Positions 22,972 through 43,370 of a stretch of 64,000 nt of DNA are shown here, piece by piece. The stretch is taken from the NCBI RefSeq assembly GCF_024700885.2, contig NZ_CP117016.1. One strand, written 5' to 3'. The position numbers were made by a program, and so were the translations under genes. The DNA is from Escherichia coli (lineage in GTDB: Bacteria; Pseudomonadota; Gammaproteobacteria; Enterobacterales; Enterobacteriaceae). A model generated the notes under the pieces. The model did no database searches, was not told the origin of the DNA, and saw nothing but the letters and a program-made list of their open reading frames with translations. How positions within the stretch are numbered: the first letter of the stretch is position 1; each line of letters begins with the position of its first letter.

Positions 22972-23021
22972 ATGAGTGCAATAGAAAATTTCGATGCCCA
23001 TACGCCCATGATGCAGCAGTA
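22972..23021 (+). pseudogene. mutS: Orphaned original 5' end of mutS (first 17 codons, [17 protein letters not shown]) displaced by the island
   Basis: Sequence encodes the native MutS N-terminus as I recall it and then diverges abruptly into AT-rich island DNA; the frame ends after 17 further island codons. Confidence 0.8.
22999..23021. repeat. Left copy of the imperfect direct repeat flanking the island (attL candidate)
   Basis: CATACGCCCATGATGCAGCAGTA; 19 of 23 positions match the right copy at 40836-40858, with an identical ATGATGCAGCA core. Confidence 0.65.
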
Positions 23022-23079
23022 CCATTTTTCTATGGTTAACCTGTTGAAATTTAGCAATAAAGTGTTTGGTAAGTAGACT

Positions 23080-23100
23080 CTGGTTTACTGATGGTATACA
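23080..23100. repeat. Tandem CTGGTTTAC / TGGTATACA motifs at the island left end (candidate integrase arm-type sites)
   Basis: The same TGGTATAC/TATACCAG motif recurs three times next to the integrase gene at the right end. Confidence 0.4.
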
Positions 23101-23365
23101 TAACATATAGTTATGTTAGCCAAGAACTCGAACTTAATGTGCCTAACTACAGAATGAAAAGTAACGTTGCGATACCGAAAAAATTTGGTGGCGTAAGGAA
23201 GGAATTGAAGTTCATTCATCTCCGTGAATATCTAAATCAATTTAATAACCAATTAAATAATTAGCTGGCTACAAATAACATTGATCTAATTCAATAATTT
23301 AGGATTATGTATTGGAGCTATTGAAAAAGTTGTGTTATAAAGGAAAAAAATCAAGGGAGATTAAA

Positions 23366-23635
23366 ATGTCTATCGATATCAATAAGTTAAAATCAAAATT
23401 AATTGAAGATTATAAATTCGCTGACGAGATTAGCGATGATGAAATCAATATAGTTTTAAGTGAAATACACAAAAAGGGTGCCTCAACACCAAAAGAAGTA
23501 GACGAAATTGTCTATACGGTATTAGAGGGTAAAAGGCATTATGCTTTCGAAAGTCTGGATACATCCAATACTACATCCCTTGCATTACAGTTAATTCAGG
23601 CGGCAAAGGTATATGCTCAAACACAAGGAAGATGA
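23366..23635 (+). CDS. Hypothetical small acidic protein
   Basis: 89-aa ORF from an ATG preceded by GGGAG; AT-rich island DNA; no recognisable motif. Confidence 0.45.
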   Translation: MSIDINKLKSKLIEDYKFADEISDDEINIVLSEIHKKGASTPKEVDEIVYTVLEGKRHYAFESLDTSNTTSLALQLIQAAKVYAQTQGR

Positions 23636-24401
23636 AAGCATTCACATAGAGAGTAAAAAAAAACTTGATATGGAATTGCAGTTTTTAATAGATGAGATGC
23701 AAGCTGGGAAGGATAAAAACACTATTCTTCCACTGTTGAATAAACTGCAATTACAGTTTTCGATCTATGTTACTGATTTTGAAAATTTCATCGTTCGAGT
23801 TTCAGAAAATGGGTATTATCGTTCAAAAGGTGAAATAAAAGATGTTTTAATTAGCGTAGAAAATTTTTTAAATTCAAATGCAGTTGTTGCAGAAGCAATA
23901 AATACAGTTTCAAGCATATTCAATTTACCCCAATGTTATCAAGAAGGAAATTTCATAACAACTGCTCAAATAATATTAAGAACACATCAGAAAGAAAAAG
24001 CCGAGGAATTATCTCAAATTTATAAGGATAAAGGATTATCAACAAATGGCTTTGATAGTAAAGAAAAAATTTATTTGAACAGACACGGGTTTGATATGAC
24101 CAGATTTATTTCGTTTATATTAGGATTAATTTGTATACTTTATTTTTTATATGAATACAATATAGGCAATATAAACAATGGTATAAGTTGGTTTAATTAT
24201 AGATTGTTTGTTCCAACTGGATTAGGAGCAATAATATTTTCACTATTTCCGACAACCATGCAATTAAAATTTAGAGCAGGAGTGACAGCCACTGGAATTG
24301 TCGCATTTATTATATTTTTTTATACTGTCAATCCAGCAAAAGTTCCTGATTTTCAACTTCATAATATTGATAGCAATCAATCATCAGAAAAAAACAACTG
24401 A
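23613..24401 (+). CDS. Hypothetical protein, soluble N-terminal domain with C-terminal transmembrane helices
   Basis: 262-aa ORF overlapping the upstream ORF by 23 nt; three hydrophobic helices in the last 90 residues. Confidence 0.5.
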   Translation: MLKHKEDESIHIESKKKLDMELQFLIDEMQAGKDKNTILPLLNKLQLQFSIYVTDFENFIVRVSENGYYRSKGEIKDVLISVENFLNSNAVVAEAINTVSSIFNLPQCYQEGNFITTAQIILRTHQKEKAEELSQIYKDKGLSTNGFDSKEKIYLNRHGFDMTRFISFILGLICILYFLYEYNIGNINNGISWFNYRLFVPTGLGAIIFSLFPTTMQLKFRAGVTATGIVAFIIFFYTVNPAKVPDFQLHNIDSNQSSEKNN

Positions 24402-24448
24402 TATCCAAGCGGATATCAGTTTAGATCTTAAAAGGAAAAAAATCCAAA

Positions 24449-24943
24449 GTGAAATTTATAGCATATGCGTTCTTGTCATTTACTATCGCACCAATAATTG
24501 GCATAATTATTGGAATTCCATTTGATAAATACTTACTCAAAAACTATCCAGTAGTTCTTTTCACAGTAATAATTATTTTCTCGTCCTTAGGAATCTACTC
24601 TCTTTACTTGTATAAAAAATCATACAAATATGTTAATGATGCTGTTTTAGCTATCTTTACTGGTTGGGTTGCATTGACATACTTACTCACGGGAGAAAAA
24701 ACAAGTGAGATAATCCCCTCGGAGAAACTAATTGAAACACACCCATTAATGTATTATCTAATAATATTAAAATTAACTATTGTTGCAAATGGGCTTTTGG
24801 CTAAGATATTTATTACATTAAACGAATTATATCATGCTCGTAAAGCTGAAAACAAAAGTGGGAAATATACTGATGTTTTAAAAATGACTATTTCCAGCAT
24901 TAAATCTTTTTTTAATTCTCAGAAGGACGGAGTCAAAAAGTAG
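24449..24943 (+). CDS. Hypothetical polytopic membrane protein
   Basis: 164-aa ORF with GTG start and about four hydrophobic helices. Confidence 0.45.
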   Translation: MKFIAYAFLSFTIAPIIGIIIGIPFDKYLLKNYPVVLFTVIIIFSSLGIYSLYLYKKSYKYVNDAVLAIFTGWVALTYLLTGEKTSEIIPSEKLIETHPLMYYLIILKLTIVANGLLAKIFITLNELYHARKAENKSGKYTDVLKMTISSIKSFFNSQKDGVKK

Positions 24944-25153
24944 AACAACCCCCATAGGAATTATTAATGCATTCATTGAAATAATAGCAGCAAAAACCAC
25001 TGCTAAATAATCATTCTTTGTGTCATAAAACAAAAACACAACAATATTTAAAAATAACACAAAGAGATAAAAAAGCATATCTTTAATATTCATAACAGCC
25101 TCCTTTTTTCTAATTTGATAATTTACAAATATCTTAATATAACGAAAAGTCAA
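24878..25153 (-). CDS. Hypothetical small membrane protein (uncertain)
   Basis: 91-aa hydrophobic ORF; its 3' end overlaps the preceding plus-strand ORF convergently, so one of the two may be spurious. Confidence 0.3.
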   Translation of the reverse strand: MTFRYIKIFVNYQIRKKEAVMNIKDMLFYLFVLFLNIVVFLFYDTKNDYLAVVFAAIISMNALIIPMGVVLLFDSVLLRIKKRFNAGNSHF

Positions 25154-25244
25154 CTTACCCGATAAAAAATAGTTATTAGAACACCTTAAACTGATAATTA
25201 CATTAATAAATGCGAGTGATGAAATTTTTGAGTGAGATCATAAA

Positions 25245-25568
25245 TTGTTGAGGCGTAAAGTTGTTGATATACCTGCTGTTCTGGTAAGTACTGCCATAAT
25301 AAAGGGCTGGTCTCCATCTGGTTTACTGCTTATATTTGTAGCTATGCTACTTAAGTGCTCTGTCGTTATATTGGGTATACATAATGCCCAAAAATCATTA
25401 TCGGATATTATTGAATCATCTAATAAGACGATGATTTTATTCACGAAAGATAATGCCAATGATGATGACGAAGCATTAACCAACCGTATTAATCAGATCA
25501 CAACCGAAGCTTTAACCAAACTCAGTAATAAAAAAGTTGATGCTGAAAAAACCTTGAATAAGCTCTAA
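25245..25568 (+). CDS. Hypothetical membrane-anchored protein (uncertain start, TTG)
   Basis: 107-aa ORF with one hydrophobic segment; an alternative 81-aa ORF exists on the opposite strand. Confidence 0.3.
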   Translation: MLRRKVVDIPAVLVSTAIIKGWSPSGLLLIFVAMLLKCSVVILGIHNAQKSLSDIIESSNKTMILFTKDNANDDDEALTNRINQITTEALTKLSNKKVDAEKTLNKL

Positions 25569-25876: not shown

Positions 25877-26260
25877 ATGGGTAAAATAATAACATTGTCG
25901 TATACAAATAATTTTAAGCCTATTAGCGATAATAAATCTCAATCATTGCGAATACACTGTGTAAGTGTACGATTAAATAAAGAAGAGTTAGAGCTTCTCA
26001 ATGCAAGCCGTGGTGATAAACGCAAAGGTGAATGGCTTCGCATGGCATCACTTCAAAAGCTTCCTCCGACCATTCCTACAATCAATTTAGAAGTTTGGCA
26101 ATCATTGTCTGATATATCTCAAAAGCTAAACCGTCTAATAATCCACCTTGATACTAAAAGCAGTAATAGTGAACTGACGAAAACAGAGATCTTCGCTGTT
26201 AAAAAGCAGATTAAAGAGCTTCGCTCATGTCTTACAGGTTCTGATCCGTCCGTAAGGTAG
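25877..26260 (+). CDS. MobC-like mobilisation (relaxosome accessory) protein
   Basis: 127-aa ORF with the MobC-type core HCVSVRLNKEELELLNA...GEWLRM, immediately upstream of a relaxase gene. Confidence 0.65.
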   Translation: MGKIITLSYTNNFKPISDNKSQSLRIHCVSVRLNKEELELLNASRGDKRKGEWLRMASLQKLPPTIPTINLEVWQSLSDISQKLNRLIIHLDTKSSNSELTKTEIFAVKKQIKELRSCLTGSDPSVR

Positions 26261-26268: not shown

Positions 26269-27450
26269 ATGAAAGGAATGCAGAAGATCAAAAGGGGTAA
26301 GAGCTTCTCAGGTGTGGTTCTCTATGTGTTAAAGCCAGGCTCACACCATAGAACCGTTCCAGAAGTAATTGGTGGCAACATGACAGGTGATTGCTCACAA
26401 GAGTTAATCGACGAATTTAACCTTACGAAAGAGCTTCGCTCAGATGTGGCAAAACCTGTTTGGCACAATTCACTTCGATTACCCCAGGGAGAATCTCTTA
26501 CCAACGAACAATGGAAACGAATTGCTGACGATTACATGAAGCGAATGGGGTTCGGTGATACACACCTCCGTTGCTATGTTCTTCATGATGATCAGGCTGG
26601 TCAGCACATACACATTATTGCAAGTCGCATAGATCTCAATGGCGGGAAGCTCTACTTGGGTAGGAACGAAAACCTCATCAGCACCCGCATAATCAGTGAA
26701 CTCGAATTCGCTCATGGTCTGACAGTGACCAAGACAGCCTCTTCAATTGCACCAAAGCAACCGAAGCGGAAGAGAATCTCTCGCAACGAACAGATGCTAT
26801 CAGAACGAACTGGTGTTCCCTGCCCCAAGAAGTCCCTTCAACAGATCATAGATAAAAGTTTGGCAGATACACCTGACCTTTTAACTTTTATCAAGAGGCT
26901 GGAAGAAGCAGAAGTAGGCTGGACGGCGAATGTCGCAAGCACAGGTAAAATGAACGGGTTCTCTTTCGAATACACAGGAATAGCTTTCAAAGCTTCCCAG
27001 TTAGCCAAGAGCTATTCATGGGCAAATCTTCAAAAGCAGCTTAACTACAACCCGGATCACTTAGAAGCTCTGCGAAAGGATATACAGACCAAGGAAGTTC
27101 CTGCTCCTGTTCCTGTTCCTGTTCCTGTTCCTGTTCCTGTTCCTGTTCCTGTTCCTGCAGAACCGATAGCAAGAACGGCCGCCCAGATCGAAAGCATAAG
27201 TGAAAAAATTGCCGAACTGGAACTACGACTCAAAGAAGACAGAAGAAACGAAATCGTAGAAAAGATTCTTCAAAAGAATGCAGCCAAACAGCAAAAGCAT
27301 CTCAGGCTCACCGGCTGGATTCCCTTTTTACAACGGCTCATAGAGCTTCTCAGAAAATATGGAAGGAGCATCCTCCACAAGGTTCCTACAAACTTCTTAG
27401 AAGTCTATTCAACCCATCATCTGAAACCTACAAGAAAAATTCGTTTATAG
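26269..27450 (+). CDS. Mobilisation relaxase (MobA/VirD2-like nuclease domain) with internal (PV)n linker
   Basis: 393-aa ORF with N-terminal Tyr region (GVVLYVLKPG) and HDDQAGQHIHII three-histidine motif typical of relaxases. Confidence 0.75.
   Translation: MKGMQKIKRGKSFSGVVLYVLKPGSHHRTVPEVIGGNMTGDCSQELIDEFNLTKELRSDVAKPVWHNSLRLPQGESLTNEQWKRIADDYMKRMGFGDTHLRCYVLHDDQAGQHIHIIASRIDLNGGKLYLGRNENLISTRIISELEFAHGLTVTKTASSIAPKQPKRKRISRNEQMLSERTGVPCPKKSLQQIIDKSLADTPDLLTFIKRLEEAEVGWTANVASTGKMNGFSFEYTGIAFKASQLAKSYSWANLQKQLNYNPDHLEALRKDIQTKEVPAPVPVPVPVPVPVPVPVPAEPIARTAAQIESISEKIAELELRLKEDRRNEIVEKILQKNAAKQQKHLRLTGWIPFLQRLIELLRKYGRSILHKVPTNFLEVYSTHHLKPTRKIRL
27100..27153 (+). repeat. In-frame hexanucleotide tandem repeat (CCTGTT)n, nine units with seven perfect, encoding a Pro-Val/Pro-Ala linker
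   Basis: CCTGCT-(CCTGTT)x7-CCTGCA read directly inside the relaxase ORF. Confidence 0.9.
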
Positions 27451-28894: not shown

Positions 28895-29308
28895 TTATTT
28901 TTTGTTTTTGGGAAAAATTTGATCTTCTCTAATACATTTACCATATGCAACCATTTGAAGATCTCTAACCATAAGTAGAAGCCTGTTATTTTCACTAACT
29001 AACCTCGAATTTTCTGTTTCTAATTTACTGATTTTATTCGAAGCATAGGCAAGACTTTGAGGACTTTTAATATGCTTAACAGTTTCACCTTTAGTTCTCT
29101 TTTTCTGCTGATATGCATAAGCTATTACTGTATGTCTTGAAAGAGCCTGTCTCGTTGGTTTTTTACCGAAATGATCCTCTACGGAATCACAAAGACTGAC
29201 CCAAGTTAAATCGCCTTCCCAGCCATTTATTTTATCGAGAACGAATTCAATATCTTCCTTGTTAAACTTTTTACTCATTATGTTCTCCTCTAAGATAATA
29301 ACTAACAA
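28895..29308 (-). CDS. Small coiled-coil protein co-operonic with the recombinase trio (real start possibly MSKKFNKED at 29278)
   Basis: 137-aa ORF overlapping the stop of the upstream recombinase; C-terminal heptad-like KISKLETENSRLVSENNRLLLMVRDLQ. Confidence 0.5.
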   Translation of the reverse strand: MLVIILEENIMSKKFNKEDIEFVLDKINGWEGDLTWVSLCDSVEDHFGKKPTRQALSRHTVIAYAYQQKKRTKGETVKHIKSPQSLAYASNKISKLETENSRLVSENNRLLLMVRDLQMVAYGKCIREDQIFPKNKK

Positions 29309-30917
29309 TATGATTTATAATTTTACTAACTTCTTGGATTTCCTTTTCAACATAATTCGCTTTCTGTGAATTATATTGGCTTCTGTATAAATTATTCTTT
29401 TCTTCAAGCGTTTGTAAATGGTCTTTAATTTTGCAAATAATATCATCCTTACTCCCTCCACCTAAATCAGAAATCATTTCATCAGCAAATAATACTCTTC
29501 GTTCGTTTTGTCGCAACTCCTCCCAAGTTCGGTTATCATACACATTATTTTGTTCAACATTTTTCCTCCCTGACCAAAAAGCTATTTCTATATCAGAGAG
29601 CATAGCTCTTTGAGCAAGAGTGTTTAAAAGATGTCTTGGCTGATGACTACTAAAAATCTCTTTCATACCATTGGGTTGTAATGTTTTATGTCGTTGAAAA
29701 AAATTTAAGGTAGTTTCTTTTTCTGACCTTTTTTTAAAATCAGCAATAAACATCTTTTTATTTGCGGGTAAGACACAGAATAAATCAATTCCTTTCTTTA
29801 AATGTAATTGATCTTTATTTAGGATTAACAATCTATTACTAAGGTTTATAGATTTTGAAAATTCATCCCAAGATTTTGTTTTATCGCTATAATTAAAAAC
29901 TTCATTCCAAAATTCTTTTGCACTAAGAATCCCACTCTCTACCCTCATTAATATATTTTTAGTTTTAACATTGAAGCAGTCCATACAGTTTAGATTTAAA
30001 AGCTTATACAACTTTGTATGAAAATATCGTCCATTCTCATCAGTCTCTAAACTCTTATAAAACTCCAATTCTCCTTTTTCTCGTAGGGTAGCTATGCACC
30101 TTGCCGTTTGTGATAATACCCTTAATCTTTTAATGGCTAATTTTGCTATTGAATGCATATTCCTTGGAATCCACTTTATACTTTCACCATAGCCTTTTGC
30201 ACTATGATAACGAATGCCATAGGAGCCTTTCCCCTCTATGTCGTTCCCTTCAACTTCACAATCCACCTCAAGACTCAGGACTTCTGATATTCGTGTTGGA
30301 GCACAAAGAAGCAGTGCGATGATAGATGTTGTAAATATATCTCTTTGGCTTTTATCATTAGAACTAAAAACCCTACCAACAAGATCTATGACTTCCTCTT
30401 CTGGTAACTTATTTTTAATTTCTTTTTGCCCTATAAGATCTCTTACAGCTTTATTTCTAATTATTCTAAGCCTGGAGTTAAACTTACTTAATTTTGGATT
30501 TATTATGTTATTTATAGCTAACACTTCTAAAATATTCTTTAATGCCTTTTCAATAGCCCCCGCACGACTATTAGAATATTTCTTTTCTACTTGGAATAAA
30601 ATGTTGTTGATAACCTCAGAATTAATATTAACAATATGTGGTTCTACATTCAAAGTGAAGAATGAACTTTCCATAATTTTTATGACCGCCAAATAAAGTA
30701 ATGATTTACTGAGATTAGGGAAACACTCTCTATATATAATAACCTTTGATAATTGTTGAAAATGCGCTCCCATGTCTTTATCTTTTTTTATATGATTGTT
30801 ATTTTTAAATGAAACCCCTCTACCCCATGACAAATCATCCCAATTTATAATATTTTCTTTTTTTGCCTGTATCCTTACTTCATTAGCTAAAACATCATAA
30901 TTATTATAATGACTCAT
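29271..30917 (-). CDS. Tyrosine recombinase family protein (third of three tandem paralogues)
   Basis: 548-aa ORF; candidate catalytic residues in order: R in CAPTRISEVLSL, HQPRHLL (HxxR), W in FWSGRK, Y in NNVYDNR. Confidence 0.6.
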   Translation of the reverse strand: MSHYNNYDVLANEVRIQAKKENIINWDDLSWGRGVSFKNNNHIKKDKDMGAHFQQLSKVIIYRECFPNLSKSLLYLAVIKIMESSFFTLNVEPHIVNINSEVINNILFQVEKKYSNSRAGAIEKALKNILEVLAINNIINPKLSKFNSRLRIIRNKAVRDLIGQKEIKNKLPEEEVIDLVGRVFSSNDKSQRDIFTTSIIALLLCAPTRISEVLSLEVDCEVEGNDIEGKGSYGIRYHSAKGYGESIKWIPRNMHSIAKLAIKRLRVLSQTARCIATLREKGELEFYKSLETDENGRYFHTKLYKLLNLNCMDCFNVKTKNILMRVESGILSAKEFWNEVFNYSDKTKSWDEFSKSINLSNRLLILNKDQLHLKKGIDLFCVLPANKKMFIADFKKRSEKETTLNFFQRHKTLQPNGMKEIFSSHQPRHLLNTLAQRAMLSDIEIAFWSGRKNVEQNNVYDNRTWEELRQNERRVLFADEMISDLGGGSKDDIICKIKDHLQTLEEKNNLYRSQYNSQKANYVEKEIQEVSKIINHIVSYYLRGEHNE

Positions 30918-32274
30918 TATTCATGCCCTCCTTGTTGAGCAATTCGATTATTTTATTTATTTTACATTCTAACATTGTGAATAAGTCCGTTAGGATTTCA
31001 AAGTCTGCTTGCTTCGTATAATCTGCTATTAATACTCCAGTAAGCTTTTTTATGATTATCAAATCGTCAACCAATCTAAGGGTAATGTCGTCACTGTTTT
31101 TTAAAAATGAGGAAATATAAGGGCTTACTAACTCATTTATTGCCTGATCTATTCTGAATGAAAACTCTTCATTGTTTTTTGCATACGACAATACTGATTT
31201 CAAATTGCTATGATCTAAAGCTTTTGCTATCGTACCTAATCCATAACCTTTAAGTGCAAGCCTTGTGGCTAATGTAACCCTAAGTTGCCGAGAGTTAATC
31301 TTTTTATTTTTATCTTTACTTACCCTTTGGCAAATGGCCTGAACCCTACCGGTTATCCTCTTAGAACTCATATGCAAATTGAAGAAGTTATTTTCATATA
31401 ATTTATCAAGTTTGTAAGTCGAGTTAAAAAAACAAGGATCAATAAAGAGGGGTAAATTGTTTAATTCATCTTCACTTAATATATCGCCTACCTCACCCTG
31501 CACAAAAACCTTAACTACTGATTTAAGCTCTGATAGTGAATTGAACAAATTATCCCCTATACGCAATTCGGAAAAATCAGTTCTGAAACTATCTCCTTGT
31601 TTTAATCTGGGTATGTTTAAAAAATTACCATTTTCTTTGATATAAAGATCCTTCCTTTTTAATTGAGCGATCTGCATTGGTCTTCGCCCCGAATATATCA
31701 TCAGCATGACTAAAAGGTAGTCATTCATAGTCATATTTCCATCATTGTATTCCTTTGTCATGCCCCCAATTAGGTTCTTCAGTTCGTATTCAGATAATGG
31801 TCTTAAAGACTCTTTTCGCTCAATATATGCAGTTGTCTTGTTGGGTTTAGTTACTTTCCATTTTAAAATCAAATCCAGCATTTCTTGATCTATGAATTCA
31901 TTATTTAACTCATAATGTTTTATTATAAAATACTTTAAACTTTCAACATGTGTATAGCTTATTTTATAATATGCATTGTAAAATCTATTTAGTAATCCAT
32001 AGTCAAATTTGTCCAACTTCCCTTGATTAAAAACAACGAGTTTTTTTATAGAAAAGAAAAACTTTCTCGCATAAGCTGAACTAAAATTCACAGCAGTATA
32101 GGCAAGGGTCTCTTTTATAGATGCTAATAAGATAGCATTAATGTTTCTTTCAAAATATGAGAAATTTAATTTAACATCTTTGCTGAGAAACCAAACACTA
32201 TCATGTAAACTAAAATTATTTCTGCTGTCTTTTGCCTTTAATACCAAGTAATTTTCTAACATTAATGCTTTCAT
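30904..32274 (-). CDS. Tyrosine recombinase-like protein with degenerate catalytic motifs (second of three)
   Basis: 456-aa ORF; SGRRPMQIAQL (box I Arg), SRQLRVTLATR, LDHSNLKSVLSYAKN; overlaps both neighbours. Confidence 0.5.
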   Translation of the reverse strand: MKALMLENYLVLKAKDSRNNFSLHDSVWFLSKDVKLNFSYFERNINAILLASIKETLAYTAVNFSSAYARKFFFSIKKLVVFNQGKLDKFDYGLLNRFYNAYYKISYTHVESLKYFIIKHYELNNEFIDQEMLDLILKWKVTKPNKTTAYIERKESLRPLSEYELKNLIGGMTKEYNDGNMTMNDYLLVMLMIYSGRRPMQIAQLKRKDLYIKENGNFLNIPRLKQGDSFRTDFSELRIGDNLFNSLSELKSVVKVFVQGEVGDILSEDELNNLPLFIDPCFFNSTYKLDKLYENNFFNLHMSSKRITGRVQAICQRVSKDKNKKINSRQLRVTLATRLALKGYGLGTIAKALDHSNLKSVLSYAKNNEEFSFRIDQAINELVSPYISSFLKNSDDITLRLVDDLIIIKKLTGVLIADYTKQADFEILTDLFTMLECKINKIIELLNKEGMNNESL

Positions 32275-33508
32275 CTATTTCTCCTTCAATTTTATTTATG
32301 ATTTCTTGATTCACTAAATCTGCCTCTTCAAAAGCTTTTAAAGTTTCTTCACTAATATAACGATTGTTATAAATCAAAGCCGTTTTGGAGTTCATTTTCC
32401 ACCCCATTCTTACGCATCTGATTCTATCTAATTGGGTCAATCTATATTGATCAGTGACTCCTATGTATTTTAAACTGTAAATATAGTTCCATGTGTGCCG
32501 TAGACAATGCCCTGTGAAATTTTGAAAAGATACTCCATTGAATTCAATTCTACTTATTTGCTTAATTACTTTATGATATGCACTTATTGACAGAGGAAAT
32601 CCTTCCGTAGGACCAGATTTTTGAGTAATAAATAAGTAATTATGATTTAAGCTTTTCGAATAGAAAGACCTATCATTGTCTATATATGAAGAGATTTGCA
32701 TAGACAATTTTTTGCTAATATTTAATTCTCGTTCAAATGTTTTAACAAGTGGTTGAAAAACTCTTGGGTCTGCTGGATCATTTATTCTTTTACAAACTTT
32801 CAGATATCTTTTTTCCTTGTTAAAATCAGTAATTTTCAAGTTCAATAGCTCACCCCCTCGCATTCCAGTTTCCTGAAGAATGAGGATTATGAGTTGATTT
32901 CTTTTACGGCAACTGATATCAACAAATGGATTGTATTGGCTTTCAGGTTCTATACATTGCAATAGAATGTCTAAGCTTTCTTTTTCTAATGATTTAAAAT
33001 CATTATTCAAATAGAATTGAGAGTTTAATTTTGGTTTATGTTTACGAAAAAGCAAACTAACACTTTTTGATATAATGTTTGTCTCATATATTGTAGTGCT
33101 AAAATATGATTCATAAATCCAAGAAATGTAGGAACTAATTACTGTCAATCTATAATGAAGATTTTCTTGATTGATCTTTTTATACTCTTTTATATCTATA
33201 ACTTTTTGTTTTTTATTTTTAACTCTAAGTTGTTCTGACAATGAATAGATTTCAGTAAAGCTAAGGAAGGTCTTAGATCTAATTCTTTCGATAAGATTTA
33301 TATTTGATTCTATTAGATAATTTTCAAAAGCAATCAAAGTGTAAGCATTTCTCAATACTGTATTAAATGACTTATTCTTTTGCTTATATAGCAAACTAAG
33401 ATATATATTTTGATAATACAATGGCAAACCGTTTTTTGAATCCAAAATCATACAAAATCTGCTTCCATCACTCGCCATTAACTTCTTTACTGAATATCTC
33501 CTATTCAT
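32216..33508 (-). CDS. Tyrosine recombinase family protein (first of three; start set at MNRRYSVKKL after a GGGGTGA RBS, ORF extends to 33547)
   Basis: GMRGGELLNL (box I Arg), HCLRHTW (HxxR), GWKMNS, ALIYNNRY (Tyr) in canonical order. Confidence 0.65.
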   Translation of the reverse strand: MNRRYSVKKLMASDGSRFCMILDSKNGLPLYYQNIYLSLLYKQKNKSFNTVLRNAYTLIAFENYLIESNINLIERIRSKTFLSFTEIYSLSEQLRVKNKKQKVIDIKEYKKINQENLHYRLTVISSYISWIYESYFSTTIYETNIISKSVSLLFRKHKPKLNSQFYLNNDFKSLEKESLDILLQCIEPESQYNPFVDISCRKRNQLIILILQETGMRGGELLNLKITDFNKEKRYLKVCKRINDPADPRVFQPLVKTFERELNISKKLSMQISSYIDNDRSFYSKSLNHNYLFITQKSGPTEGFPLSISAYHKVIKQISRIEFNGVSFQNFTGHCLRHTWNYIYSLKYIGVTDQYRLTQLDRIRCVRMGWKMNSKTALIYNNRYISEETLKAFEEADLVNQEIINKIEGEIDESINVRKLLGIKGKRQQK

Positions 33509-33836: not shown

Positions 33837-33847
33837 AAACATAAAAT

Positions 33848-34712: not shown

Positions 34713-36560
34713 TCAACCTTGATAATCTTCAGCCTCGATACCACAATAAGTTATCATGTTTGTTATTAACGGTATATCATTACAATTCTGCTTGAAAGAC
34801 CTGCCATAACTATTGTTTCTTATTTTACAACGAGTCATTAATACTTCTTCAATGGCTCTTGAAAATGCCACAAAGACTGTTTTTTGATTTTCTATTTGCT
34901 CTTCTTCTTTACCAAAATAGGCACCAGGTTCAAGCCCCACAACGATGACCTTCCTGAACTCTAACCCTTTACTTTTATGGATGGTCATAAGAGGTATTGT
35001 TTTATTGCCAAGTAATAAATCAATGGCTTCTGATGTGTTTTCTTTTACATCTAACTTATCGAGGTGGCGAGAAAGTAATTCTATGCTATATTCTAAAACA
35101 TTCCCACTCATATACTGCGGAAAGTAAGACTTTATTTTATCGACACCAAATATACTTAATAATGAATATAAATAATCGACAATTTCTCCTTTAATTACCC
35201 GATGAGATTTAATAAACTGGCTAAGTTCTTTTTCTAACCGTGTAACATCACCTCTTTTACTTACTCCTCTTATATTACATAGAAGCTCCATTGTAGTGGC
35301 CCAGCTTTCTATGGATTTTCTATTACAGACAAACATTAGCATTTGTAAAAGTAACTGTACTACAGCTTCATTTAAAAGATCCTGATACTCGTTCTCAAGG
35401 CGACATTGTATTTTCAAATATTGCAATGCTGAAATGATATCGTCTGTATATTGTTTAGCCGGGTTTCTTAGCAGTATACATATATCTCTTTCATTTACTC
35501 CTTCAGCAATCCATTGCTGGATACATAATGCTATATATGCCCCTTCAATACTACTTTCGTCAAATTGTAGTAACTTAGCTGAACCTTCATTTTCAATCAA
35601 CATCATATCAGGCTTTATATCAGCATGATTCATGAAAGCTTCCATCATGCGTTGATAATTTATGAGGTTTTTTAATGACCTTCTATTGCTAACTAATTCA
35701 TTAGATTGTTCGATTCCAAAATCTTTTTTAAACACATCAAAAGCATTGTGCATTGCACCTGCCCAACCCATTATTCTTTGTTTTGTATCACCGACTGCTG
35801 TTATTTTTATTTTTTTACCCAAGAAAATGCTCTTAAAAATCTCATATTGCCTATATGTTGTGTCCTGAAACTCATCGATAAAAGCATAGTCATATGTTGA
35901 ATTTATAGCATTAGATAAATATTGATTCCTACTAATAATATAATTAGCAAGAAAATTAATCATCTTGAATGAAATCCTTGATTTTGGTTTTAATAAGTGT
36001 AACCACACAAACCGTCTTATCCTGCCATCAACAGAATGTTCTAATGCTTTATTATAAGGAGTTACTATATAATTCTCTTCAAAATTATAAGGTTGTAATT
36101 TATTTAATTCTTCAGATGTTAAACCTTCAAAGCCTACGGCCTCTCTTTTAATTTCTTCAACTAAATCATTATTATTTGGAAAGATTATTTCATAGTCATT
36201 TGATGGACGATAAGATTCCGGAATAGTGCTTTTAAAGCGATCAACAATACTTTTACAGAATGCATCAAATGTTGTTGATTCAAATTTGTGTCTATATTTT
36301 GTATCAAGCCGTGAGTTTACTCTATCTTGAAGATTTTTGGCCGCATCTTTTTTAAAGGATAATGCAATTATTTTTTTATTGCTGCATTTTCCTGTCTCAA
36401 TCAAGAAACAAGCTTTCTGAGCCAATAATTCTGTTTTACCTGCACCGGGACCAGCAAGAACGAGATTATGCCCTGTACTATTTCGAATTACCCTCATAGC
36501 CTCGTCTTCTACTTCTTGGATATCCTTTAAAACCCAATCGGCATCTTTAATAGTCGGCAT
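34713..36560 (-). CDS. gajB: UvrD/PcrA-like superfamily 1 helicase, Gabija GajB-like
   Basis: 615-aa ORF with Walker A (LAGPGAGKTELL), DEFQDTT motif and C-terminal HKSKGLEF motif; start codon shares one nucleotide with the upstream ATPase stop. Confidence 0.65.
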   Translation of the reverse strand: MPTIKDADWVLKDIQEVEDEAMRVIRNSTGHNLVLAGPGAGKTELLAQKACFLIETGKCSNKKIIALSFKKDAAKNLQDRVNSRLDTKYRHKFESTTFDAFCKSIVDRFKSTIPESYRPSNDYEIIFPNNNDLVEEIKREAVGFEGLTSEELNKLQPYNFEENYIVTPYNKALEHSVDGRIRRFVWLHLLKPKSRISFKMINFLANYIISRNQYLSNAINSTYDYAFIDEFQDTTYRQYEIFKSIFLGKKIKITAVGDTKQRIMGWAGAMHNAFDVFKKDFGIEQSNELVSNRRSLKNLINYQRMMEAFMNHADIKPDMMLIENEGSAKLLQFDESSIEGAYIALCIQQWIAEGVNERDICILLRNPAKQYTDDIISALQYLKIQCRLENEYQDLLNEAVVQLLLQMLMFVCNRKSIESWATTMELLCNIRGVSKRGDVTRLEKELSQFIKSHRVIKGEIVDYLYSLLSIFGVDKIKSYFPQYMSGNVLEYSIELLSRHLDKLDVKENTSEAIDLLLGNKTIPLMTIHKSKGLEFRKVIVVGLEPGAYFGKEEEQIENQKTVFVAFSRAIEEVLMTRCKIRNNSYGRSFKQNCNDIPLITNMITYCGIEAEDYQG

Positions 36561-38548
36561 TAAAGTAATCCTCTTACTGTTTCGATAATTTCATTAAGAA
36601 CTTCAGGACTATCATCTCTTAACTTATCGTCTTCCATTTTTGATAGAACATAATTGTGCGATAATGGTTTACCTCTTCCTAAAAATAGGTAACGATACCA
36701 AAAATATTTTTCATAATCATCGAACTCACTAATATCAATATCTTTCTCTTCTTTTTTCAAAACTGCAGCAATTGCCGATTTAACTTTATTATCATATTCA
36801 TGATCGTCATCTTTTGGCAATCTTGGCCCACCATTTTTGGGAACAAATGTCTTATAATCCTCAAAGAATTTATTAAGCATTAGCCAATCTAAATCGTAGG
36901 GGTAAGAAAAATAAACATTATAATCTTTTAGACAATTAATCCATGCCGATTCATTATCTTGATCCTCATCCCATGTATGCATTTTTTCAAGCTCTTCATC
37001 ACTTAAAGTTCCTGAAGTAATACTTAACAATTCATTTTTATCTGCACCTATAGATATTAATTGTTTGACTGCATATTTAATTCTTCCCCAACCACCACCT
37101 CCTCCTCTCTTGAAATCATAGTCGAGAAGAGTCACATGTGGAATTGAAAGCTCATTGAGTAACTTCCAAAAATGATTAACATATCGCCCTCCTAATGGAG
37201 CAAATGTTATCAATGAAGTGTCAAGCTCTATACCATTTACTTGAGCTATTTTAGGTATTACTATTTCTTCGCTATCACCTTCACCAAGTATTACAACTTT
37301 TGCAAAATAAATTTCTGGATATGCCTTCACTGCTTCTTTTACATAAGTGAAAGTATCAACATTGTCTCCATCGTCTTCATCTTCGCTTGGTAATAATATT
37401 GGTTTGACAACAGTATTTTTATTATCATGTAGACGAAAATACCTTATATTTTCTGGTTCTACTCTATTGAGTAATGAAGGTGCGTGTGTTGTTAAAACAA
37501 CCTGTGCTCGATCATTCTCAGATATATCTTCACATAGTTTAACTATTCTTCCTAAATATTGGGGTGAAAGATGATTTTCTGGTTCTTCGATTAATATTAT
37601 CGTTAAATTTGGAGGATCTAATGCTTCTACTGATATTGATAATTCATTTTCTCCTGAATTAATGATCTCATCTTCAATATCAAATGCAGATTTGACTAAC
37701 GAAAGATAAAACAATGACTTCATACCATCACTCAATCTTTCAGTTGGTAATGGCTGAGTCACCGGAGTAGGCATAAATACAGTATCTATATGCTTTAATA
37801 CATCTTCTATTCCATTCATTACTGGCTGAATTTTAAGCTGTTCAAAATACCCTCCGCTAAAAAGAGTTTTCCAATTTCTGCCCAATGAAGATGTTATTGT
37901 CTGAACCCCAATTTCTTCTTGGAACTGGTTTCCGATTGATTCTGCAACCTCATCAACCGTTGAACTCATCTGTTCAGACCATTCAACTGCATTTATCAAA
38001 CGGTGCATGATGGTTCCGGCTGTTTGCTTCAGTTGTTGAGCAGGATCGCGATAAGCAGGGACATAATGAACATGGATTTTTGATCTTTCATATGCTGTAA
38101 TATTTTTTTCATATTCTCCTATTTCCCATACTAAATCACTATCTATATCCCCTTCTGCAAGATTAGTTTTTGTCCATTTAGCTTTTAATTTTGCTATACA
38201 GTATGGGATCTGGTCTGCTTCATTTGAGACCAAATGCTTAAAGAAATCAGCGACTGAATCGTCCTCACCATCTTGCAGATCTGCAAATTCAAATTTTACA
38301 CGAACTGATAATTCTCTTTCATCTTGAGTATCGATTTCATCTCCAGGAGGAACATAAAAATCATCAACTTGAACAATTCTATCGGAGCTTTTGACACCAA
38401 ACATCCTTGTCAATGCGAGGAGAACAGCCGTCTTACCTGTTCCATTCCCTCCAATTAAGCTGGTGAATGAATTTATATTTATAGTTTGCCCTACATTATC
38501 AAAGCTCTTAAAACCTTTGATCTCCATTTGTGTAATTTTCATTATCAC
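36560..38548 (-). CDS. gajA: OLD-family ATPase-TOPRIM nuclease, Gabija GajA-like
   Basis: 662-aa ORF with ABC-type Walker A (LIGGNGTGKTAVLL), Walker B and H-loop region (IILIEEPENHLSP) and a C-terminal TOPRIM-like VVILGEGDSEE. Confidence 0.65.
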   Translation of the reverse strand: MIMKITQMEIKGFKSFDNVGQTININSFTSLIGGNGTGKTAVLLALTRMFGVKSSDRIVQVDDFYVPPGDEIDTQDERELSVRVKFEFADLQDGEDDSVADFFKHLVSNEADQIPYCIAKLKAKWTKTNLAEGDIDSDLVWEIGEYEKNITAYERSKIHVHYVPAYRDPAQQLKQTAGTIMHRLINAVEWSEQMSSTVDEVAESIGNQFQEEIGVQTITSSLGRNWKTLFSGGYFEQLKIQPVMNGIEDVLKHIDTVFMPTPVTQPLPTERLSDGMKSLFYLSLVKSAFDIEDEIINSGENELSISVEALDPPNLTIILIEEPENHLSPQYLGRIVKLCEDISENDRAQVVLTTHAPSLLNRVEPENIRYFRLHDNKNTVVKPILLPSEDEDDGDNVDTFTYVKEAVKAYPEIYFAKVVILGEGDSEEIVIPKIAQVNGIELDTSLITFAPLGGRYVNHFWKLLNELSIPHVTLLDYDFKRGGGGGWGRIKYAVKQLISIGADKNELLSITSGTLSDEELEKMHTWDEDQDNESAWINCLKDYNVYFSYPYDLDWLMLNKFFEDYKTFVPKNGGPRLPKDDDHEYDNKVKSAIAAVLKKEEKDIDISEFDDYEKYFWYRYLFLGRGKPLSHNYVLSKMEDDKLRDDSPEVLNEIIETVRGLL

Positions 38549-39195
38549 CTCAATTGCTGTTTTAAAAAATTATAATCACTAATTATTTCTGCGTTTGTAA
38601 TGATTTCTTGTGAGCACAGCTTAAAACATTCTAAAAATATATTTTTATTATCGTTATGTTCCCAATGTTTTTTCAAAGCTTCTTCAATTGAAATCCAAAT
38701 AACTTGAAAATCGTTATTAGATATTTGGCTTGTTAAAACTGTTTCTTCCACACAAAGTATATGCCCTAAGATGACATCATCGTATATGTCAGTATCTGAA
38801 TCTCTAACTCCTAACCTTTTTATTTTCCTTTTTTGGATGATTTTATTTTTAACAATAAAAGGATGTTCTTCTATAAAATCGGTCAATGATGTAAAAGCCA
38901 AGCCACGAACCTGAGCACCATGCATTGAACTATTTACTTTATGGATATCTCTCCAAACTCGCAGATCACCTAATACATAGAGAACCCGCTGATTTCTCGC
39001 TTTCGTATCTTCTGCTTGGTATTGGATATAAGGTGGCCCTCCCCCATTTTGTCTATATCGGGCAAGGGTTTTGATGCTTATGCCAAGAAAGACAGAAGCA
39101 AGCTCACTATTTACAGTGGCAGAATCAGGCATTTGACCAAATAGTTTCCATACCTCTGAATACTCCCGCAAAACTTCCACCACACTCATCTTCAC
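38545..39195 (-). CDS. Uncharacterised protein with an N-terminal HTH-like motif, translationally coupled between the integrase and the ATPase (possible true start at ATG 39189)
   Basis: 216-aa ORF; ELASVFLGISIKTLARYRQNGGGPP resembles excisionase/AlpA-type HTH; its start overlaps the integrase stop and its stop overlaps the ATPase start (ATGA). Confidence 0.5.
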   Translation of the reverse strand: MKMSVVEVLREYSEVWKLFGQMPDSATVNSELASVFLGISIKTLARYRQNGGGPPYIQYQAEDTKARNQRVLYVLGDLRVWRDIHKVNSSMHGAQVRGLAFTSLTDFIEEHPFIVKNKIIQKRKIKRLGVRDSDTDIYDDVILGHILCVEETVLTSQISNNDFQVIWISIEEALKKHWEHNDNKNIFLECFKLCSQEIITNAEIISDYNFLKQQLR

Positions 39196-40655
39196 TCCCT
39201 CGTTTCAGGTAATGGAGGATACTTAGCCGAAGCAAGTAACACATTGTATAATTTAGGAGCAGTCATAAGCATATGCAACTCAATCCTTTGTAATGCTTCA
39301 AAAATCCGTTCTTGATCAGGTTCTGCATACCTTTCTGTTGGATCTGTTGTATTTCTGTGATTGAGCAGTCTCTTAACGACGGCATATGAAACAAGTTCTT
39401 CAGCAACCCTACCAAATGTCCTTCGTAGATCATGCATACCAAGCTTCAGGATTCCCGCCTCTTGGCAGATATATTCCCTTAGACTTTTACTATCGGAATA
39501 GTGACCAACTTTACTTCGAGAAGAACGGGCCGGGAAAACCCACTTCTGTTTGTCCTTCTGGGTTACCGTATCGTTTACTATGTCTCTTCTATCTTCCAAA
39601 ATTCTTTTGACAGCATCACAAATCGGAAGCTCGTGATCGTTTCGATTCTTAGTGTCGTAAAAACGGATAGTTCTGTTACTCAGGTCAACATAGCTTGTCG
39701 TTTTAGCTTCTTCCTTTGTAAGAGACTCTCGCCAACACAGAGAAGCTGTTTCTTCCTTACGAGCACCTAAGAGAACGGTAAGTAGCAGATAATCGCACCC
39801 AAGCCGGTTGAAGCTTCTCTTGTTGAACAATGCAGTCAAGAACCGACCAAGTGTATCCTTTGGTGATAAGGGGTTTCTGACACCTTTTGCCCGATAACTA
39901 TCCTCAAGCTCAGAACGTGTCCTAAACTTTTTCTGTACCTTTAAGATACTGAAAGGGTTGTAAGATAGAGAAGGTTGTCGTTGCTGGGTCTGAGCATTCC
40001 CAGCTTCAATCTCTATTGCGTGTTTTACAGCAACATTCGCCCACCTAAAGGTCTGTTCCGCTGCTGTTCTGGCTCTTGAAGCAATCTCATCAAACTTCCT
40101 AAGAATTTCATTACCAGTAAGATCTTTAACTCGCAAACCAGCCCACTCAGAAAGCCTGTTTTCTGCTTTATCTAATACAGCCAAGGTGTTGGGTTTAGCT
40201 GGTTTCGCTCTACCCAGCAGATGCTGGCGGTATTGTGCAAACACTTCACTGATAGTGAGTTCAGAAGCATCGGACTCCCGTTTTATTTTGTTAGGGTTCC
40301 TTTTGGTCAACTTCATGGTTTGAACTAAATTGCGAGCAACCTCGCGGGCTTGATCGATGTTAGCGAAATCAGAGACATTGCCAATTGTAGACCTGATAAC
40401 CTCAGATGGGGATTTTCCCCCTGTCTTAGGGCGATTGCCAGGAGAAGAGACTCGTCGCTGAACGATATAGGTCTTTTTCGTTGCACTGATTTTGACACCA
40501 AAACCAACGGGTGAATCCCGGTGATTATCAGTGATAAGATACGGTTTTCGCTCTGGATTGGGTAAGTAGACTACTCTGCCTTGCGGATCAAGGCTCGGTT
40601 TCACGTCGATAGATAACTTATTGATTATAATCGACTGATTGAGTGTCATTTTCAT
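39192..40655 (-). CDS. Tyrosine integrase, P4-like family with N-terminal arm-binding domain (ORF extends to 40763; start set at MKMTLNQ)
   Basis: Box I LLGARKEETASL, HDLRRTFG (HxLR) and C-terminal NHRNTTDPTERY; lies at the island border next to the target gene. Confidence 0.8.
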   Translation of the reverse strand: MKMTLNQSIIINKLSIDVKPSLDPQGRVVYLPNPERKPYLITDNHRDSPVGFGVKISATKKTYIVQRRVSSPGNRPKTGGKSPSEVIRSTIGNVSDFANIDQAREVARNLVQTMKLTKRNPNKIKRESDASELTISEVFAQYRQHLLGRAKPAKPNTLAVLDKAENRLSEWAGLRVKDLTGNEILRKFDEIASRARTAAEQTFRWANVAVKHAIEIEAGNAQTQQRQPSLSYNPFSILKVQKKFRTRSELEDSYRAKGVRNPLSPKDTLGRFLTALFNKRSFNRLGCDYLLLTVLLGARKEETASLCWRESLTKEEAKTTSYVDLSNRTIRFYDTKNRNDHELPICDAVKRILEDRRDIVNDTVTQKDKQKWVFPARSSRSKVGHYSDSKSLREYICQEAGILKLGMHDLRRTFGRVAEELVSYAVVKRLLNHRNTTDPTERYAEPDQERIFEALQRIELHMLMTAPKLYNVLLASAKYPPLPETRE

Positions 40656-40660
40656 CGATG

Positions 40661-40716
40661 TATACCAGTGGTTCAAGTGTGTATACCAGATAGTAGCTAG
40701 AATACTTCTGGTATAC
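40661..40716. promoter_or_regulatory. Three copies of TATACCAG, including a 10-bp inverted repeat GTATACCAGA...TCTGGTATAC, between the integrase start and mutS
   Basis: Read directly; candidate integrase operator or arm sites, overlapping a possible -10 (TAGAAT) for the rewired mutS. Confidence 0.5.
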
Positions 40717-40787
40717 AAATTTATGGGTTTATGTGAGTTTAAAGGGGTATCACTTGGGGCCACATAAGTACTCAGAAGACTTTAAAA

Positions 40788-43370
40788 ATGAGTAAAATCA
40801 ATATGAAAGAGTCTGCAAGCAAGGATCTATCAGACCACACTCCTATGATGCAGCAATATCTCAAGCTGAAAGCCCAGCATCCCGAGATCCTGCTGTTTTA
40901 CCGGATGGGTGATTTTTATGAACTGTTTTATGACGACGCAAAACGCGCGTCGCAACTGCTGGATATTTCACTGACCAAACGCGGTGCTTCGGCGGGAGAG
41001 CCGATCCCGATGGCGGGGATCCCCTACCATGCGGTGGAAAACTACCTCGCCAAACTGGTGAATCAGGGCGAGTCCGTTGCCATCTGCGAACAAATTGGCG
41101 ATCCGGCGACCAGCAAAGGTCCGGTTGAGCGCAAAGTTGTGCGTATCGTTACGCCAGGCACCATCAGCGATGAAGCCCTGTTGCAGGAGCGTCAGGACAA
41201 CCTGCTGGCGGCTATCTGGCAGGACAGCAAAGGTTTCGGCTACGCGACGCTGGATATCAGTTCCGGGCGTTTTCGCCTGAGCGAACCGGCTGACCGCGAA
41301 ACGATGGCGGCAGAGCTGCAACGCACTAATCCGGCAGAGCTGTTGTATGCAGAAAATTTCGCCGAGATGTCGCTGATTGAAGGTCGTCGCGGACTGCGCC
41401 GTCGCCCGCTATGGGAGTTTGAAATCGACACCGCGCGCCAGCAGTTGAATCTGCAATTTGGCACCCGCGATCTGGTCGGTTTTGGCGTCGAGAACGCGCC
41501 GCGCGGACTTTGTGCTGCCGGTTGTCTGTTGCAGTATGCGAAAGATACCCAACGTACGACTCTGCCGCATATTCGTTCCATCACCATGGAACGTGAGCAG
41601 GACAGCATCATTATGGATGCCGCGACGCGTCGTAATCTGGAAATCACCCAGAACCTGGCGGGTGGTGCGGAAAATACGCTGGCTTCTGTGCTCGACTGCA
41701 CCGTCACGCCGATGGGCAGCCGTATGCTGAAACGCTGGCTGCATATGCCAGTGCGCGATACCCGCGTCTTGCTTGAGCGCCAGCAAACTATTGGCGCATT
41801 GCAGGATTTCACCGCCGAGCTGCAGCCGGTACTGCGTCAGGTCGGCGACCTGGAACGTATTCTGGCGCGTCTGGCTTTACGAACTGCTCGCCCACGCGAT
41901 CTGGCCCGTATGCGTCACGCTTTCCAGCAACTGCCGGAGCTGCGTGCGCTATTAGAAAATGTCGATAGCGCTCCGGTACAGGCGCTGCGTGAAAAAATGG
42001 GCGAGTTTGCCGAGCTGCGCGATCTGCTGGAGCGAGCAATCATCGACACACCGCCAGTGCTGGTACGCGACGGTGGTGTTATCGCACCGGGCTATAACGA
42101 AGAGCTGGATGAGTGGCGCGCGCTGGCTGACGGCGCGACCGATTATCTGGAGCGTCTGGAAGTCCGCGAGCGTGAACGTACTGGCCTGGACACCCTGAAA
42201 GTCGGCTTTAACGCGGTTCATGGTTATTACATTCAGATCAGCCGTGGACAAAGCCATCTGGCACCCATCAATTACATGCGTCGCCAGACGCTGAAAAACG
42301 CCGAGCGCTACATTATTCCAGAGCTAAAAGAGTACGAAGACAAAGTTCTCACTTCAAAAGGCAAAGCACTGGCACTGGAAAAACAGCTTTATGAAGAGTT
42401 GTTCGACCTGCTGTTGCCGCATCTGGAAGCGTTGCAACAGAGCGCGAGCGCGCTGGCGGAACTCGACGTGCTGGTGAACCTGGCAGAACGGGCCTATACG
42501 CTGAACTACACCTGCCCGACCTTTATTGATAAACCGGGTATTCGCATCACCGAAGGCCGCCATCCGGTGGTTGAACAGGTGCTGAATGAGCCGTTTATCG
42601 CCAACCCGCTGAACCTGTCGCCGCAGCGTCGCATGTTGATCATTACCGGTCCGAATATGGGCGGTAAAAGTACCTATATGCGCCAGACCGCACTGATTGC
42701 GCTGATGGCCTACATCGGCAGCTATGTACCGGCACAAAAAGTCGAGATTGGACCTATCGATCGCATCTTTACCCGCGTAGGGGCAGCGGATGATCTGGCA
42801 TCCGGGCGTTCAACCTTTATGGTGGAAATGACCGAAACCGCCAATATTTTACATAACGCCACCGAGTACAGTCTGGTGCTGATGGATGAGATTGGGCGCG
42901 GGACGTCCACTTACGATGGTCTGTCGCTGGCGTGGGCGTGCGCGGAAAATCTGGCGAATAAGATTAAAGCGTTGACACTGTTTGCCACCCACTATTTCGA
43001 GCTGACCCAGTTACCGGAGAAAATGGAAGGCGTCGCCAACGTGCATCTCGATGCGCTGGAGCACGGCGACACCATTGCCTTTATGCACAGCGTGCAGGAT
43101 GGCGCGGCGAGCAAAAGCTACGGCCTGGCGGTTGCAGCTCTGGCAGGCGTGCCAAAAGAGGTTATTAAGCGCGCACGGCAAAAACTGCGTGAGCTGGAAA
43201 GCATTTCGCCGAACGCCGCCGCTACGCAAGTGGATGGTACGCAAATGTCTTTGCTGTCAGTGCCAGAAGAAACGTCGCCTGCGGTCGAGGCACTGGAAAA
43301 CCTCGACCCGGATTCACTGACTCCGCGTCAGGCGCTGGAGTGGATTTATCGCTTGAAGAGTCTGGTGTAA
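40788..43370 (+). CDS. mutS: DNA mismatch repair protein MutS with an island-encoded replacement N-terminus
   Basis: 860-aa ORF; matches the MutS sequence as I recall it from HTPMMQQYL onward (Walker [10 protein letters not shown] present), but the first 16 residues [16 protein letters not shown] are encoded by island DNA. Confidence 0.93.
40836..40858. repeat. Right copy of the imperfect direct repeat flanking the island (attR candidate), inside the mutS coding sequence
   Basis: CACACTCCTATGATGCAGCAATA; 19 of 23 positions match 22999-23021. Confidence 0.65.

Follow-up and report, generated by a model that had tools for sequence, protein, structure and literature searches.

The studied window is a 64,000-nt stretch of contig NZ_CP117016.1 from Escherichia coli strain MLI114; it spans the fhlA-ygbA-mutS-rpoS region and is 100% identical to NZ_CP117013. 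The window contains a 17.8-kb island inserted in the 5’ part of mutS. Very probably, this segment is an integrative mobilizable element (IME) whose integrase recombines the attachment site of the element (attP) with a site in mutS and restores the start of the gene. The evidence comprises the junctions of the island and the corresponding empty site, the site specificity observed throughout the integrase family, the intact chimeric open reading frame (ORF) of mutS, and the gene content of the island.

Island junctions and the attachment site

The mutS locus of E. coli K-12 MG1655 was used as the empty-site reference for mapping the junctions. In the alignment, the left flank of the island is collinear with K-12 through the sequence ...ATGATGCAGCAGTA, and the right flank, from ATGATGCAGCA onward. 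Seventeen codons of native mutS are retained at positions 22972–23021 and are followed by AT-rich DNA, as the initial annotation of the window had proposed; K-12 matches this fragment and not the sequence at 40788–40858. At the other end, a full-length mutS ORF begins with foreign codons at 40788 or 40803 and regains the native sequence at HTPMMQQY. The 17 native codons at the left junction are continued by 17 island codons, encoding HFSMVNLLKFSNKVFGK, up to the stop codon at 23074–23076. The resulting stub ORF (22972–23076, plus strand) was delineated from the sequence, the K-12 alignment and a comparison of island N-termini. The GC content of the island is 0.29–0.34 over most of its length and 0.37–0.44 at the relaxase and integrase genes, that of the flanks being 0.48–0.59.

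The junctions carry a 24-nt direct repeat (family D8 in the repeat search) with copies at 22998–23021 (attL) and 40835–40858 (attR), both on the plus strand and both supported by the K-12 alignment and a comparison of junctions across hosts. The copies are identical at 20 of 24 positions (83%), their core is ATGATGCAGCA, and they are 17,837 nt apart, which agrees with the originally estimated island length of about 17.8 kb. The imperfect 23-bp repeat reported at that stage (19 of 23 positions) was counted correctly, and the repeat search extended it by one nucleotide.

As placed by sequence comparison, the crossover lies within ATGATGCAGCAGTA (23008–23021), that is, in mutS codons 13–17, and is confined to ATGATGCAGCA(G)TA. 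By the same comparison, the sequence on the right side of the core is assigned to the host, because the 54-mer joining the native N-terminus with AAG exactly matches 3,109 records. An island origin was considered for Lys19 (AAG, with AGG in K-12) and for the CAA at codon 16, both just right of the core. It was rejected for Lys19, given that AAG behind a native N-terminus is the most common allele in E. coli; the CAA is left as a single difference. The position of the break is the same in every host compared, and the sequence to the right of it follows the codon usage of the respective host.

Both arms of the island were delimited by motif counts and arm comparison. The left arm (P’; 23022–23110, plus strand) is conserved among islands, and the right arm (P; 40656–40802, plus strand) is the spacer between int and mutS. 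The right arm contains three copies of the motif TGTATACCA, at 40659, 40680 and 40709, and the left arm, one copy on the minus strand (23092–23100), about 70 bp inside the left end. The window contains only these four copies, all within approximately 190 bp of the island ends, the expected number being 0.23; four copies were reached in none of 100 shuffles. In the second subfamily of islands, the corresponding places on both arms are occupied by TGTAGCCCA/GAGCTACA. Such a swap of motifs between subfamilies is expected if the sites co-evolve with the N-terminal domain of the integrase, and we regard the TGTATACCA repeats as candidate integrase arm sites. The predicted attP joint is GATCTATCAGACCACACTCCTATGATGCAGCA[A/G]TACCATTTTTCTATGG.

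Two further repeats were noted. One copy of the 12-mer GGTAAGTAGACT lies near each end of the island, both in the same orientation (23068–23079 and 40561–40572), the right copy being inside the int coding region. Internal copies resembling the left arm (25317 and 29019) were considered as traces of older stacked islands; this was rejected, as the alignment shows only a 12-nt chance match.

Distribution and site specificity of the integrase family

A related int gene was found in 133 of 5,426 complete E. coli genomes (2.45%), always on the chromosome and with nucleotide identity of 72–100%, and the island-type int-mutS spacer was likewise found in 133 genomes; about 97.5% of E. coli genomes lack the island. 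Forty rows were sampled at even spacing along the ranking, and in each of them the island-type right end overlaps the mutS annotation. Members with 74–77% nucleotide identity and other cargo (DUF4209, or DRT3 together with an ABC-three-component system and a NERD-domain protein) are also located between ygbA and mutS and have int beside mutS. The cargo of sister islands includes Qat, DRT3, Her and other systems.

Outside E. coli, one genome per species was retained, which yielded 23 loci. The hosts are Dickeya, Citrobacter, Salmonella diarizonae, Yokenella, Yersinia, Rahnella, Erwinia, Serratia, Pectobacterium, Tatumella, Brenneria, Klebsiella, Kosakonia and, at 56% identity, a betaproteobacterial Sulfuritalea metagenome-assembled genome. 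In 21 of these loci mutS is divergent from int at a distance of about 140 bp, and an island-supplied N-terminus is fused to MutS at HTPMMQQY, having the form M[NKQ]E..DKD[LF].. in all but the two most divergent loci. The two loci without adjacent mutS are a 4-kb contig of Brenneria alni with a truncated int (L024) and a tandem P-O-P’ junction (L027). The search for the same integrase in other genomes, suggested in the initial annotation, placed it at the 5’ end of mutS wherever this could be checked, including the sampled E. coli rows and 21 other species.

In a representative library of 1.84 billion proteins, the integrase family comprises 82 clusters (E ≤ 1e-30). Among eight representatives with 34–50% identity, seven adjoin a MutS N-terminus and one adjoins a stub. 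Sequence comparison over this range indicates that the family is dedicated to the mutS site, down to approximately 34% identity. The stub ...SKHTPVMAQY, continued by VLILP and a stop codon, is located next to a 50%-identical integrase (L031, 3572–4001, and L032) and leads into lysis and tail genes of a prophage rather than into mutS. It reflects either another element using the same att site in tandem or a rearrangement.

The arms of the Rahnella and E. coli islands are near-identical, whereas the MutS proteins of these hosts are only about 83% identical. Near-identical arms combined with host-specific flanks are the mark of horizontal transfer with subsequent site-specific integration. In E. 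coli 23AR0998 (L029, 1411–3800), the right arm is joined to a left arm (HFLLVKLL...) at the usual nucleotide, after a second, older int truncated by IS1. Element-to-element junctions of the same type were found in Pectobacterium fontis (L019, ~10459–11149) and in a metagenome bin (L027, ~2704). These P-O-P’ junctions are the product expected of tandem integration into an occupied site. In Serratia quinivorans, the native stub is followed by FF... at the junction.

The chimeric mutS gene and its leader

The chimeric mutS gene (40803–43370, plus strand; TIGR01070 mutS1 and the PGAP coding sequence) encodes a protein of 855 residues. Eleven island-encoded residues replace nine native ones, and the sequence is native from HTPMMQQY. 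The initial annotation was right in that the integrase gene is the last gene of the island, that a replacement 5’ end keeps mutS intact, and that the island N-terminus rejoins the native sequence at this motif. Its start codon at 40788 was not retained: this first “Met” codon is ACG (Thr) in about half of related islands, and the conserved start is the second ATG, at 40803, also called by PGAP. The mutS1 model matches the product with 1387 bits, its position 1 being aligned to chimeric residue 12 and the match continuing to the end; hence the swapped segment lies outside the conserved core of the family. N-termini ahead of HTPMMQQY vary freely among Gammaproteobacteria. The replacement peptide is conserved across 24 island loci, its commonest form in relatives being MNE[SD]xDKD[LF]S[DS].

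The native E. coli mutS leader starts at −74 and contains the Hfq-binding ARN1 motif at −50 to −42, the sequence CATCACACCCCATTTAATATC at −41 to −21 and an ArcZ site near the ribosome-binding site (RBS) (Chen & Gottesman 2017). Transferred to the window (22898–22971, plus strand), these coordinates place the transcription start at 22898, the ARN1 motif AATAAAAAC at 22922–22930 and the RBS/ArcZ-pairing region at 22952–22971. The native promoter and the Hfq/ArcZ leader are all to the left of attL and stay with the stub. The replacement leader and RBS must lie in the int-mutS spacer; in the alignment this leader is unrelated to the native one, and no (ARN)3 run was seen in it by eye.

Given this arrangement, integration might inactivate or strongly down-regulate mutS, and the island would then act as a reversible mutator switch (“regulated gene integrity”). 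Inactivation was suggested for mutS-targeting integrases by Mageeney et al. (2020), and it would fit the separation of the functional ORF from the native promoter and the whole Hfq/ArcZ leader, as well as a replacement spacer in which the scan found no consensus promoter. We consider this explanation very unlikely. The chimeric ORF is complete, has a conserved start with GAG 8 nt upstream, and matches mutS1 from residue 12 to the end, and the 11-residue replacement is conserved across islands. In the inspected island-bearing records, including that of MLI114, mutS is annotated at its full length of 2568 nt; regulated gene integrity implies a disrupted target ORF, and in MLI114 this ORF is complete. 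PDB constructs of functional E. coli MutS carry N-terminal extensions. The strongest argument is Salmonella, whose MutS has the same N-terminus and spacer and which is proficient in mismatch repair. We infer from these features that the chimeric mutS is expressed and that its product is functional.

Proposed mechanism of integration

According to the proposed mechanism, the tyrosine integrase would join attP of the element to the ~14-bp mutS site ATGATGCAGCAGTA, located within the near-universal HTPMMQQY motif. Together with its conserved helix-turn-helix (HTH) partner, it would catalyze both integration and excision. The element would bring its own mutS start beside attP, consisting of a leader, an RBS and 11 codons. 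Integration would then yield a full-length mutS, with the native promoter, leader and 17 codons stranded 17.8 kb away as the stub. Transfer would proceed by mobilization and depend on a co-resident conjugative element, because the element has a relaxase but no conjugation machinery.

The integrase gene (39192–40655, minus strand) adjoins mutS and encodes 487 residues. The assignment is based on the PGAP annotation, a match to Phage_integrase (PF00589, E = 2.3e-10) and an alignment of 18 sequences, in which R299, H408, R411, H433 and Y443 are invariant. Of the initial description as a “P4-type” tyrosine integrase, the second part stands; the P4 type is weakly supported, the match to Arm-DNA-bind_3 (PF13356) having E = 0.035, and the same domain is listed without a weak mark in some relatives (P0076, P0088, L035). 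Sequence search yielded no relative in PDB, and there was no NCBIfam match. The partner gene (38545–39195, minus strand) overlaps int and encodes a 216-residue protein with an N-terminal HTH, KTLARYRQNGGGPPYIQ, recognized in the alignment of relatives; its Pfam match to HTH_17 is weak (E = 0.21). It follows int in relatives down to 34% integrase identity, directly in most of them and at a distance of up to about 65 nt in others. Its product is a candidate excision/directionality factor or regulator.

Several observations weigh against this mechanism. The attL and attR copies differ once inside the presumed overlap, with CAG versus CAA in codon 16, which requires either that a mismatch is tolerated or that a mutation came later. 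A search of metagenome contigs for attP with a degenerate 47-nt pattern gave no matches, and no excised circle was found. The scan of 40400–40900 for promoters and terminators gave no hits, so that no σ70 consensus is seen in the int-mutS spacer. No oriT was found in the island, and the small ORF upstream of the relaxase gene has no family match in the NCBIfam and PHROGs scans.

The mutS-adjacent integrase is not the only recombinase of the island. A module of four genes (28895–33547, minus strand), recognized by ORF order and sizes and by family scans, encodes tyrosine recombinases of 443 and 456 aa, a 548-aa protein and a 137-aa small protein, the last two without family matches in the scans. 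The order and sizes fit the ginABCD genes of GInt, which encode two catalytic tyrosine recombinases, a non-catalytic protein with the recombinase fold and a small protein. GInts are site-specific mobile elements, and this trio of recombinase-fold genes might have put the island at mutS in place of the mutS-adjacent integrase. That is less likely still: the module is found in the sister islands whose cargo is Gabija, Her, Qat or DRT3, but most family members lack it and have an identical junction (L003, L004), and the mutS-adjacent integrase is present in all members as well as in 21 other species. The least probable explanation is an ancestral segment lost by deletion from K-12-like strains, or one that came only by flanking homologous recombination with no site-specific step; frequent homologous exchange is known at the mutS region, and individual E. 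coli strains could have acquired the island via flanking homology, but the island is absent from most E. coli genomes, its GC content is about 20 points below that of the flanks, the same codons are present in both the stub and the new 5’ end, the junction nucleotide is the same in different bacterial families with host-specific flanks, and tandem P-O-P’ junctions exist.

Island remnant upstream of Salmonella mutS

Native MutS N-termini of Enterobacteriaceae have the form MS[AT][IL][ED]N[FL]DA, and that of Salmonella, MNESFDKDFSN, is of the island type. The locus was examined in two independent Salmonella assemblies, L040 and L028. Both contain typical SPI-1 (Salmonella pathogenicity island 1) right ends, with invE/invG and then pphB; invA is present in one and invF/invH, in the other. 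An int stump, the island-type spacer and the island-type N-terminus are located directly upstream of mutS in both (L040, 8441–9060; L028, 9453–10060). In L040 this DNA shares 81.4% identity with the right end of the E. coli L004 island across 617 nt, and the match extends over the new codons of mutS, all of the spacer, which has GAGCTACA-type motifs, and the in-frame int codons 1–134. The stump is 78% identical at the amino acid level and is then cut off. Hence, mutS in both assemblies is probably expressed from a start region derived from a mobile element. The entry P10339 of UniProt we take to be a further basis, beside the two assemblies, for the generality of the remnant across Salmonella.

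We also considered whether SPI-1 itself resides inside such an island. No evidence for this was obtained: there is no native mutS stub on the ygbA/sitA side, and homology to E. coli stops 65 bp upstream of ygbA. In L040, the mutS gene breaks off after codon 129, and an IS91-family transposase gene comes next (9001–10361). Judging by this sequence, the strain probably is a naturally occurring mutator defective in mutS.

A broader reading, plausible if tentative, is that the islands free mismatch repair from the stationary-phase control by Hfq, ArcZ and SdsR through replacement of the promoter, the leader and nine codons; that this swap became fixed in Salmonella; and that serial integration caused the fhlA-mutS / invH-mutS plasticity zone flanking SPI-1. 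If so, MutS would be released from the host circuit that lowers its level in stationary phase for stress-induced mutagenesis. According to Chen & Gottesman (2017), the Hfq/ArcZ sites lack conservation, and the SdsR targets found in Salmonella do not include mutS; a replaced leader would account for both observations. Expression of MutS from a mobile-element leader without the mapped Hfq ARN1 and ArcZ sites is predicted for about 2.5% of E. coli strains and for the Salmonella strains examined. The predicted swap is relevant to stress-induced mutagenesis as well as to recombination barriers.

Relation to known elements

The SXT/R391 integrative conjugative elements (ICEs), inserted in prfC, and the dusA islands target the 5’ end of a housekeeping gene and restore it. 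As in the present island, they have a tyrosine integrase at the end of the element, att in the first codons of the target, an element-borne 5’ end and a native stub at the far junction. In SXT/R391 and the dusA islands, a new promoter comes with this 5’ end and the gene remains intact. In the present island, the target is mutS codons 13–17 and the integrase family is distinct. SXT/R391 is a self-transmissible ICE, whereas the island studied here, an IME of small size, has only a relaxase and carries anti-phage genes.

The initial annotation knew of no description of mutS as such a target; this proved incorrect, as the locus and mutS targeting are already on record (Mageeney et al. 2020; Hochhauser et al. 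2023; Tn6872–Tn6874), and the kind of mechanism is known. The mutS-ygbA interval is E. coli defense hotspot #8, occupied in 27 of 1,322 genomes (2.0%, versus 2.45% here), and its islands were typed as IME (by CONJscan) or IME+GInt, with Qat, retron, type I restriction-modification, AbiP2 and Her as cargo (Hochhauser et al. 2023). The locus and the kind of island are the same as here. One hotspot #8 island typed “IME__GInt” in that study carries Qat, like the islands that share the recombinase module in our set. In the catalog the site is treated as intergenic, with mutS unmentioned in the main text, and the catalog describes neither the intragenic att site nor the new N-terminus or the dedicated integrase.

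TIGER/Islander mapping in Beta- and Gammaproteobacteria revealed four integrase clades with mutS as their target, the sites being upstream of the MutS Pfam domains, and their integration was read as probably inactivating (Mageeney et al. 2020). Their range agrees with the distribution observed here, which covers Enterobacterales and Sulfuritalea. Gene inactivation was proposed there, whereas here a full-length ORF is restored, which corrects the published inference for mutS-targeting elements.

The Providencia IMEs Tn6872, Tn6873 and Tn6874 were placed 102 bp upstream of mutS, with a “24-bp attB” AACCTAcAaTTtAACCTACACTTA. They have int and oriT beside mutS in Morganellaceae, one of them with uvrD and another with hsdMSR. 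The reported attB resembles the arm-type motifs GGCTACAAGTGAGCTACAAATTT located ~90–120 bp upstream of mutS in our island. These elements, compared with the present one by their description only, are said to be upstream of mutS and not within it.

Lerminiaux (2020) described the fhlA/ygbA-mutS region as a hotspot having “no apparent” features of the tRNA, phage-att or repeat type, and work on Salmonella Newport reported variable invH-mutS clusters with integrases among their contents. Our data offer a molecular cause for this hotspot, namely an att site in the part of mutS coding for HTPMMQQY, served by a dedicated, deeply branching integrase family. In the literature searched, we found no account of mutS restored by an element-borne 5’ end, of one integrase family (to ~34% identity) dedicated to the mutS site, or of a fixed island remnant in Salmonella.

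Other genes of the island and the neighboring loci

The island is an IME with anti-phage cargo. It is classified as such because it has a relaxase gene and lacks genes for a type IV secretion system or a coupling protein; none for the mating pore or the coupling protein were found in the PGAP annotation or among the ORFs scanned against NCBIfam and PHROGs. A phage-satellite origin was considered and rejected: when 10 island proteins were compared with PHROGs, only the recombinases and, weakly, the relaxase matched, with no structural or replication family among the matches.

The MobA/VirD2-type relaxase (26269–27450, plus strand; PF03432, E = 1e-26) is 43–56% identical to relaxases from plasmids of 3.6–10 kb. 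The small ORF directly upstream of it (25877–26260, plus strand) may, by position only, encode a relaxosome accessory protein; in related small plasmids, MobC annotations overlap the matches to the relaxase. In the middle of the relaxase gene, a (GTTCCT)n repeat (27097–27162, family D1) encodes a Val-Pro run VPAPVPVPVP..., which could be a length-variable linker. Further small ORFs are located between the relaxase gene and the four-gene recombinase module. Between the left arm and this region are four hypothetical ORFs (23312–25568, plus strand), hydrophobic and membrane-like by eye, that have no family match according to the ORF list, annotation and family scans.

The anti-phage payload in MLI114 is Gabija. 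GajB, a UvrD-type helicase (34713–36560, minus strand; PADLOC, 659 bits), and GajA, an ATPase/OLD-type (TOPRIM) nuclease (36560–38548, minus strand; 798 bits), are encoded by adjacent genes, and both cover the respective profiles at full length. This is the arrangement of the known system, with no difference noted, and an IME carrying Gabija is in itself ordinary. A 191-aa ORF separates the Gabija genes from tRNA-Asp(GTC), tRNA-Val(TAC) and a partial third tRNA (33681–33910, plus strand), found by annotation and tRNA search. These tRNA genes are directly upstream of the first recombinase gene of the trio; in the close relative L029, IS1 is located between the trio and Gabija, and no tRNA is annotated.

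Two features of the window are located outside the island. A TOBE-domain (ModE-like) gene at ~21874–22302, between fhlA and ygbA, is absent from K-12 and has been reported for some Escherichia lineages. The ygbN-rpoS interval (~50200–53050) contains genes for a MarR-family regulator and subunits B, C and D of hydroxyarylic acid decarboxylase; this segment is the long-known mutS-rpoS polymorphism.

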